64,000 nt of DNA from Dictyostelium discoideum (taxonomy: Eukaryota), in NCBI GenBank assembly GCA_000004695.1, contig CM000154.2, forward strand, positions 4,768,001 through 4,832,000. Reading direction: 5' to 3'. Numbering within the stretch: the stretch's first letter is position 1; the number at the start of each line of letters is the position of its first letter. This document shows, piece by piece, positions 28,391-30,206 of the stretch. Below the pieces are notes generated by a model that did not search any database, was not told the origin of the DNA, and saw nothing but the letters and a program-made list of their open reading frames with translations. A program made the translations under genes and the position numbers.

Positions 28391-30206
28391 CCAAAATTAA
28401 TATGGCTGCTGAAATTAATATGGTAATTTTGGCATGGGACTTATGTCTGCTAGAATTACCACATTAATTTCAGCAGCCATATTAATTTTGGCATGCACAG
28501 ACCAACTATTTTAGGCTGAAATTAATATGGCTGCCGAAATTAATATGGTAATTTTGGGCATAGAAAAATAAAAAAAAAACTCAAAGTCATTTAATTAATA
28601 ATCATCTCAAATATAAAAGAATTAAAAATAATAAAAAAAAACTCATGGGATTAATTACAGTAACAATACTGATGACAAGAATAATTATAAAATAAAAAAA
28701 AAAAAAAAATCTTTTTTTATCTTTTTATTTTTATTTCTTATTTATTTTCATGTGTTCAAAAAAAGTGGTGGTTTAAAACAATTTATTTAATTTTAAACTG
28801 TATGATTGTTTAAACAATTTCGAAATAAGTTTCTTTAAAGAAATTCTGTATTTCTTTTTTATTTTATTTTATTTCATTTCATTCTAATTTTTTTTTTTTT
28901 TTTTTTTTTATTTTTTTATTTTTTTTTTTTTTTTTGTATATTTAAGTTATTTATTATTATTATTATTATTATTATTATTATTATTATTATTATTATTATT
29001 ATTATTATTATTATTATTATTATTATTATTATTATTATTATTATTATTATTATTATTATATTATTGTTATTATTATTATTATTATTATTATTATTAATAT
29101 TACTATTATTTAATTGACCGAAGGGATATCTTTTACTTTTTTTTTATATATAATTGTTCGAAACTTTAAAAAATAAAATAAAAAAAAAAAAATTAAAAAA
29201 AAAAATATAAAAAAAAAATTAAAAAAATTAAAAAGTATTTTTTTTTTTTATTTTTTTATTTTTCCACCCGAAGATGTCGCTTTTTTGGAATTTAAAGATG
29301 TTGAATTCAATCAAAGTGATGAATTTGGTGTATTATTTAACGAAGTTACTATTGATAAAAATGATTTGAAGTACAAAGTAAATGTTGAATTTAGAGAGGC
29401 GGAGACAAGTAAAAATAAATTGCAAAGGGATATCGAAATAACCAAAAGAAAATCAACAGATGACCTAGTTGAAAAAGCAATCGAGCACTCTACCACCGAA
29501 GTTAGATCAACACATGAAGCTGCAACAACTTCCAATAATGGTGGAATCACAACTCAATCAAACAAAAACAAAACGGGTAAAAAAAGAGCTAATCAATTAC
29601 AATCTGATGCTGATTTTACCAAAAGATTTTCAAACGAAACTTCATCTGTTAGTAACAAAAGAGAAAGTAGAAGAGTCAATAATTAAAATAAAAAATTAAA
29701 AAAAAAAAATTATTTTAATTTTTTTTTTTTTTTTTTTTTTTTATTTTTAATTTTTTTTTTTATTTTTAATTTTTTTTTTTGTGAGCCGTGGACATAAATG
29801 AATAATAAAAAAATATATCAACTAAAAAAAAAAGAAATGAAAATAAATTATAAAATTAATAATAAAAATAAAAAGATAAAAATAAATAAAAGATATAAAT
29901 AAAATAATATGAAAATTTTTTTTTTTTTTTTTTTTANTATTATAATTATTATAATAAAAATAATAATAATAATAATTTTAGTACTAAAATTTTGTTTATA
30001 TTTGAGATGATTATTAATTAAATGACTTTGACTTTTTTTTTTTTTCTATGCCAAAATTACCATATTAATTTTGGCAGCTATGTACATGCTGAAATTAATA
30101 TGGCTGCTGAAATTAATACGGTAATTTTGGCAGACATAAGTCCCATGCCAAAATTAATATAGCTGCTGAAATTAATATGGTAATTTTGGCATGGGACAGT
30201 TATTTT
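28391..30206. mobile_element. Non-autonomous TIR DNA element of about 1.8 kb. The terminal about 170 bp inverted units are built of nested hairpins (ends TGTCCCATGCC...GGCATGGGACA), with an apparent 6 bp TSD of GTTATT.
   Basis: The left flank at 28232..28390 matches copy-1 14950..15105. The right flank at 30207..30355 matches copy-1 15106..15260. Copy 1 has the uninterrupted site aaaaagg|gttatt|ttgtgtttg. In copy 2 gttatt is present on both sides of the insertion. The reverse complement of the right terminus equals the left terminus. Confidence 0.8.
28961..29095. repeat. (ATT)n microsatellite of about 45 units, inside the TIR element.
   Basis: Near-perfect trinucleotide array with one interruption (tatattattgtt). 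Confidence 0.9.

Follow-up and report, generated by a model that had tools for sequence, protein, structure and literature searches.

We analysed a window of 64,000 nucleotides from chromosome 5 of Dictyostelium discoideum AX4 (NCBI GenBank assembly GCA_000004695.1, contig CM000154.2, positions 4,768,001 to 4,832,000 of the forward strand; all coordinates below are those of the window unless a locus is named), which carries two tandem polyketide synthase (PKS) paralogues, and found a mobile element inserted next to one of them. The insert occupies 28382..30198, is 1817 bp long with 19% G+C, and is very probably a copy of thug-S, the multi-copy class II DNA transposon without a transposase that has been described in this organism. 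It is bounded by a 6-bp target-site duplication (TSD), GTTATT, the corresponding site beside the other paralogue is still empty, and the insertion post-dates the tandem duplication. The element family is already known, and the insert represents no new kind of element.

The boundaries were read directly from the two duplicate copies. Copy 2 reads ...GGAAAAAGG|GTTATT|TGTCCCATGCCAAAATTA... where the element begins and ...TAATTTTGGCATGGGACA|GTTATT|TTGTGTTTGTCAATTT where it ends, and the empty site in copy 1 runs unbroken as ...GGAAAAAGG GTTATT TTGTGTTTGTCAATTT. The hexamer stands at 28376..28381 and, by reading of the sequence, again at 30199..30204, with a single uninterrupted occurrence at 15098..15103 in copy 1. 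When one half of the window was compared with the other by BLAST, 10748-15104 paired with 24015-28382 at 95.9% identity and 15098-15249 paired with 30199-30351 at 97.4%; hence the two flanks meet at a single unbroken position in copy 1, and the overlap of the two alignments represents the duplicated bases. A preliminary description, made from the sequence alone, had proposed an insertion bounded by terminal inverted repeats (TIRs), with GTTATT duplicated and the empty site still intact in copy 1, and had suggested this alignment of the flanks; the junctions and the BLAST pairs bear it out. Its coordinates, 28391..30206, gave the right length but lay 8-9 bp too far to the right. It had also placed the element inside the PKS gene, and this has to be corrected: the insertion point, 28381/28382, is in 5' intergenic DNA, 304 bp upstream of the start codon of the copy-2 PKS, whose first coding exon (27676..28077, minus strand, the N-terminus of the ketoacyl synthase domain) has its ATG at 28077.

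The length of the duplication can be read in two ways. In the four copies compared here (4/4; the other three are described below), the right-hand duplicate is followed by T, which is also the first base of the element; at a T frequency of ~41%, the chance probability of this is p ~0.03. The data fit a 7-bp duplication (GTTATTT), in which case G would be the first base of the element, as well as they fit one of 6 bp.

Three independent lines of evidence identify the insert as thug-S: the close similarity of its open reading frame (ORF) to a protein cluster, exact matches to published small RNAs, and a high-scoring Rfam hairpin. The C-terminal 94 residues of the ORF are ~95% identical to a protein listed here as P0004, the 90%-identity cluster of which includes DDB_G0271154 and DDB_G0270824. 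The first of these is listed as a 'thugS element' under the name DDB_G0271154_TE (PMC12405889), and the second is reported with tdd-4 and thugS homology (PMC3386910). The small RNA miRNA_can_D3-5p (UAUGGCUGCUGAAAUUAAUGUGG) matches exactly at 28459..28481 on the minus strand, the plus strand there being the Northern probe DM227, and miRNA_can_D3-3p (AUUAAUUUCGGCAGCCAUAUU), a published thug-S small RNA, matches exactly at 28524..28544, also on the minus strand. miRNA_can_D3 was located in 'the DNA transposon thug-S' (PMC4894637), for which the original description, as cited in PMC4894637 and PMC5633606, is that of Glockner et al. (2001, Genome Res 11:585). Finally, a mir-7131 precursor hairpin (Rfam RF03716) was found at 28397..28485; it is palindromic and is called on both strands, with 93.8 and 93.1 bits where the gathering score is 74, and these are the sole Rfam hits at gathering level across the whole window. 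A literature search found no paper mentioning mir-7131. This left-end hairpin is the source of published small RNAs that depend on DrnB and RbdB (PMC4894637), and transcripts that cross the element ends would fold back and could in this way supply the small-RNA pathway.

Taken together, these links turn into an identification what the preliminary description had offered as a guess, a 'thug'-type element. Its alternatives, a Tdd or DDT element, are unsupported: the termini of Tdd-4/5 are TGTAGGGAATTTT, and the TSD reported for them is 5 bp long. A literature search on thug-T and DDT-S gave no relevant paper. The organism, the ORF (~95% identical to the P0004 cluster), the miRNA hairpin, the multi-copy occurrence, the lack of a transposase and the structured terminal repeats are all common to the insert and to thug-S; we found no difference between them, and the insert is one genomic copy of the family.

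Other family copies were obtained from newer D. discoideum assemblies by fetching loci that encode paralogues of the ORF. The preliminary description had recommended a genome search with the ~170-bp terminal unit and a comparison of TSDs; the fetched loci yielded three full copies: 1980 bp in locus L001 (5061-7040, TSD ATTAAC), 1564 bp in L002 (5981-7544, TSD CATATT), and 1737 bp in L006 (5420-7156, TSD TTTGGT), the last belonging to a divergent subfamily. All three start with TGTCCCATGCCAAAATTA and finish with its reverse complement, and the plus-strand copy in the window aligns end to end with those of L001 and L002. A 6-bp duplication of AT-rich target DNA was therefore seen in 4/4 copies, those of the window, L001, L002 and L006. 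The cluster lists contain at least 13 AX4 gene models.

The window itself holds a second member of the family, a fragment of ~185 bp at 15614..15797 on the minus strand, in which element positions 43-149 are joined to positions 1679-1817, so that it lacks 1.5 kb of the interior as well as the outer 42 nt of one end. It lies ~510 bp to the right of the empty site, just outside the duplicated block of copy 1 on its right side. Immediately to its left, 15434-15573 contains ~130-140 bp that are 88-90% identical to L005 5219-5345 and L006 11418-11542, and represents another dispersed repeat.

Functionally, thug-S resembles miniature inverted-repeat transposable elements (MITEs) and Foldback-type elements in being mobile without a transposase of its own and in having ends built of sub-repeats that fold into long hairpins and act as small-RNA precursors. 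Hairpins are likewise the precursors of many MITE-derived miRNAs. The comparison is one of function, with no sequence relationship expected, and full thug-S copies, at 1.6-2.0 kb, are larger than typical MITEs and have a conserved ORF. We considered assigning the insert to the MITE class, whose members are short (< ~800 bp) and non-coding, and rejected this for an element of 1817 bp with a conserved ORF; the fragment at 15614-15797 alone is of MITE size, but it has lost one terminus.

The empty site also places the insertion in time. The two large ORFs on the minus strand, 5451-12971 and 18799-26256, are tandem PKS paralogues within duplicated blocks, 3734-15249 and 17174-30351, that repeat with a period of ~13.4 kb at 91-96% identity by BLAST. 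One of two ~96%-identical copies is occupied, and at the empty site in copy 1 GTTATT stands just once, with no excision footprint. In addition, the ends of the element are 98-100% identical to those of the other copies, compared with 4-8% divergence of the duplicated flanks. Because of the missing footprint and of this difference in divergence, we conclude that the insertion came after the duplication of 13 kb, as the preliminary description had held.

The opposite order, in which the element was present before the duplication and later disappeared from copy 1 through precise excision or gene conversion, has to be considered, since a pattern of presence and absence alone gives no direction of change, and since a thug-derived fragment (15614-15797) does lie ~510 bp away in copy 1. 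That fragment, however, occupies another site and points the other way. After cut-and-paste excision the TSD usually remains, with bases added or lost, whereas copy 1 is free of any footprint and retains a single GTTATT, and the near identity of the element ends to those of other copies, set against the diverged flanks, points to a younger insertion. We therefore regard early presence followed by loss as highly improbable. The locus was also reached in another strain (L007, GCA_054883475.1 chromosome 5) through the neighbouring gene at 38120-39682; there the locus stops inside Tdd-5, before the thug site.

The ends of thug-S have an elaborate structure. The outermost 18 nt at the two sides, TGTCCCATGCCAAAATTA and TAATTTTGGCATGGGACA, are perfect reverse complements, as expected from the preliminary description of the termini as inverted repeats, and this 18-nt motif has 8 occurrences in the window, where shuffled sequences would lead one to expect 0.12. 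The element begins with TGT and finishes with ACA; its first five bases are TGTCC, the fifth being a pyrimidine. Over ~200-235 bp the two ends are alike in inverted orientation, with one 28-bp indel, and both, when single-stranded, fold into near-perfect long hairpins (z ~ -11 as RNA or DNA). They are composed of modules of ~41 nt (GCCAAAATTAATATGG-CTGCTG-AAATTAATATGG-TAATTTTGGC) whose orientation alternates. Of the 12-nt core AAATTAATATGG there are 11 copies, 6 at the left end and 5 at the right end, with 0 in the interior. The left terminal repeat region (28382..28616, plus strand) comprises the perfect 18-nt terminus, a palindromic outer unit of 58 bp and its six AAATTAATATGG cores in both orientations; the right region (29996..30198, minus strand) contains the other five, with the outer 58-bp unit at 30140-30197.

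In this outermost unit, two complementary 17-nt arms enclose a 24-nt centre. As a whole it forms a direct repeat at the two ends of the element (28382-28440 and 30139-30198; repeat family D7) with 98% direct identity. The 24-nt centre is thus oriented alike at both ends, and strict inverted symmetry is broken at positions 19-42. We saw the same unflipped centre in 3/3 close copies (window, L001 and L002); the divergent L006 copy has continuous true TIRs in which the centre is not unflipped. The simplest explanation would be one ancestral inversion between the two arms.

The interior of the element is extremely AT-rich. A (TTA)n microsatellite of ~54 units at 28951..29110 differs in length among copies, and a conserved ORF of ~140 codons, without an in-frame ATG, occupies 29264..29686 on the plus strand. 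The ORF is 100% identical to DDB_G0290953, the AX4 gene model under which it is already annotated as a hypothetical protein. In that model, exon 1 (28402..28444, plus strand, MAAEINMVILAWDL-) lies wholly within the terminal repeat, a GT..AG 'intron' spans 28445-29297, and exon 2 starts at 29298; splicing 28402-28444 to 29298-29686 rebuilds the annotated product (P0001, DDB_G0290953) exactly. Exon 1 is a translated piece of the terminal repeat.

ORF and Pfam scans found no ORF with H2C2 and DDE (rve) integrase domains within 28382-30198. The ~140-codon ORF is the only one, and it matches no Pfam family, even at E = 1, and has no relative among solved structures in a profile search of the PDB; its AlphaFold2 model, with a mean predicted local distance difference test (pLDDT) score of 47, contains a single helix and is otherwise predicted to be disordered. 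Hence the preliminary description was right that the element carries no transposase and is non-autonomous, although it made no mention of the conserved small ORF DDB_G0290953 that the element nonetheless holds. Between copies the ORF retains 84-100% amino-acid identity, falling to 45-56% against the divergent L006 subfamily, and its ratio of nonsynonymous to synonymous substitution rates (dN/dS) between copies is 0.34-0.56, from small counts. Some coding constraint is possible, with no sign of a recombinase, and the product is probably an accessory or vestigial protein, not a transposase.

One could take the same data as a sign of autonomy, with the small ORF being an unrecognised recombinase, or with hairpin ends that move without a conventional transposase. 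The conservation of the ORF, both among close copies and towards L006, and its dN/dS would fit such a role, and thugS gene models are reported to be expressed (PMC12405889); yet this would require a recombinase of only ~140 residues with no in-frame ATG, no Pfam or PDB relative and, in its low-confidence model, a single helix in a disordered chain. Moreover, the annotated exon 1 is nothing other than translated terminal repeat, and the N-terminal half of the ORF is swapped for unrelated sequence in the L001-type variant. We consider autonomy so improbable that it deserves hardly any weight.

A non-autonomous thug-S would be moved in trans. In this scheme a transposase from elsewhere would make 6-bp staggered cuts at GTTATT and join the element ends to them after the duplication, and it would probably recognise the conserved terminal arm of 17-18 nt, the 12-nt AAATTAATATGG motif, or both. 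An obvious candidate would be the rve integrase of Tdd-4 or Tdd-5, members of the Ginger2/Tdd superfamily, with thug-S as a non-autonomous partner. TGT...ACA termini and a duplication of 4-6 bp are typical of rve-type integrases, and the 6-bp TSD of thug-S falls inside that range. The thug-S termini are TGT...ACA as in integrase-type elements (PMC2836005), a Tdd-5 fragment adjoins the insert from 30680 onwards, and the gene model DDB_G0270824 joins a thug-S ORF to a Tdd-4 integrase. Adjacency is expected in any case, however, as Dictyostelium transposons cluster, and the resemblance of the termini does not extend far.

Tdd termini were recovered from the window (32839), L002, L004 (6434 and 9974) and L007 (16812), single termini only at each of these loci. 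All read TGTAGGGAATTTT..., unrelated past TGT to the thug-S end TGTCCCATGCC; the Tdd-4/5 terminus and the thug-S terminus TGTCCCATGCCAAAATT have only TGT in common, and BLAST found no similarity between thug ends and Tdd ends. According to Bao, Kapitonov & Jurka (2010; PMC2836005), Ginger2/Tdd elements have TGTNR termini and TSDs of 4-5 bp, that of Tdd-4/5 being 5 bp, whereas the fifth base of the thug-S terminus is C, not a purine, and the duplication is 6 bp in 4/4 copies. Cross-mobilisation of thug-S by Tdd-4/5 is on these grounds unlikely, a low-probability possibility. The same differences led us to reject thug-S as a deletion derivative of Tdd-4/5, considering its unrelated termini, the lack of BLAST similarity, the TSD of 6 versus 5 bp and the departure from TGTNR. 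What the elements do have in common is the host, their nature as DNA transposons, terminal repeats of 200-300 bp and TGT...ACA ends, in addition to the Tdd-5 copy next to the insert; they differ in that thug-S has no integrase, has termini unrelated beyond TGT, duplicates 6 and not 5 bp, and does not follow TGTNR.

Several points weigh against our reading of the insert as a thug-S copy mobilised in trans. The identification runs through links that are concordant but indirect, and not through alignment to the published thug-S consensus, and is to that extent qualified. From its dN/dS, the ORF may encode something functional that lies beyond the recognition of the tools used here. Transposition in trans is what we infer, and no candidate enzyme with matching termini turned up. 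There is also a slim chance that the thug-S ends (TGT...ACA with a 6- or 7-bp TSD) reflect an uncharacterised transposase specificity, through cross-mobilisation by Tdd-4/5 or through an unrecognised transposase; what might suggest it is limited to the three terminal bases and the size of the TSD. If this were true, the mir-7131 hairpin at the end would act as a built-in self-silencing device.

The surroundings of the thug-S copy show further transposon activity. The neighbouring Tdd-5 fragment (30680-32839), with its integrase exons on the minus strand, lies between 100-N assembly gaps at 30580-30679 and 32478-32577, and its exons match TDD5 (AF298206) in the supplementary alignment of PMC2836005. 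Homology between the two duplicate copies resumes at 16310 <-> 32840. In copy 2 the right terminus of Tdd-5, ...ATTCCCTACA, abuts ACAACAATGTCC, and copy 1 at ~16311 is unbroken (ggcACAACAATGTCC); because this site is uninterrupted in copy 1, Tdd-5 is a second insertion that followed the duplication. The segments 30369-30579 and 15270-16309 both lie between homologous flanks of the duplicate copies, yet they show no alignment to one another. In copy 2 the segment, 30369-30579 (211 bp), has no match among the fetched sequences, and part of the explanation may be concealed by the assembly gap.

A third type of repeat, marked by 'ttaaag' sub-repeats, is nested in Tdd-5 at 31800-32470 and recurs in L003 at 6058-6835, where it has termini CACAGCAATG...CATTGCTGTG and is inserted in a thug-S terminal hairpin. 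The repeat nested in Tdd-5 has a tRNA-like look; a tRNA gene was considered and rejected, as ARAGORN found no tRNA in the window. In DDB_G0270824 (P0037, 769 aa), which lies outside the window, residues 1-165 are the thug-S ORF and are fused to an H2C2/rve integrase of Tdd-4; this chimera is probably an artefact of gene prediction across adjacent or nested transposons. In L002, a called gene of 615 aa (3720-5762) with a weak match to DUF5906, a D5-like helicase family, ends ~220 bp before the thug-S copy and may be part of another mobile element.

In summary, our results add to a known family the exact boundaries of a thug-S copy, a pair of filled and empty sites, and a TSD of 6 bp (possibly 7 bp) in 4/4 copies, together with the unflipped centre of the outer 58-bp unit and the finding that the Tdd ends are unrelated. 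Boundaries exact to the base, the length of the TSD and a before-and-after pair within one genome could aid the curation of Dictyostelium repeat libraries. For the organism, these findings mean that both thug-S and the Tdd-5 beside it have been active since the PKS genes were recently duplicated. As a consequence of the later thug-S insertion, a hairpin-rich element that gives rise to small RNAs now precedes one of the two PKS paralogues by 304 bp, and the expression of the paralogues could differ.

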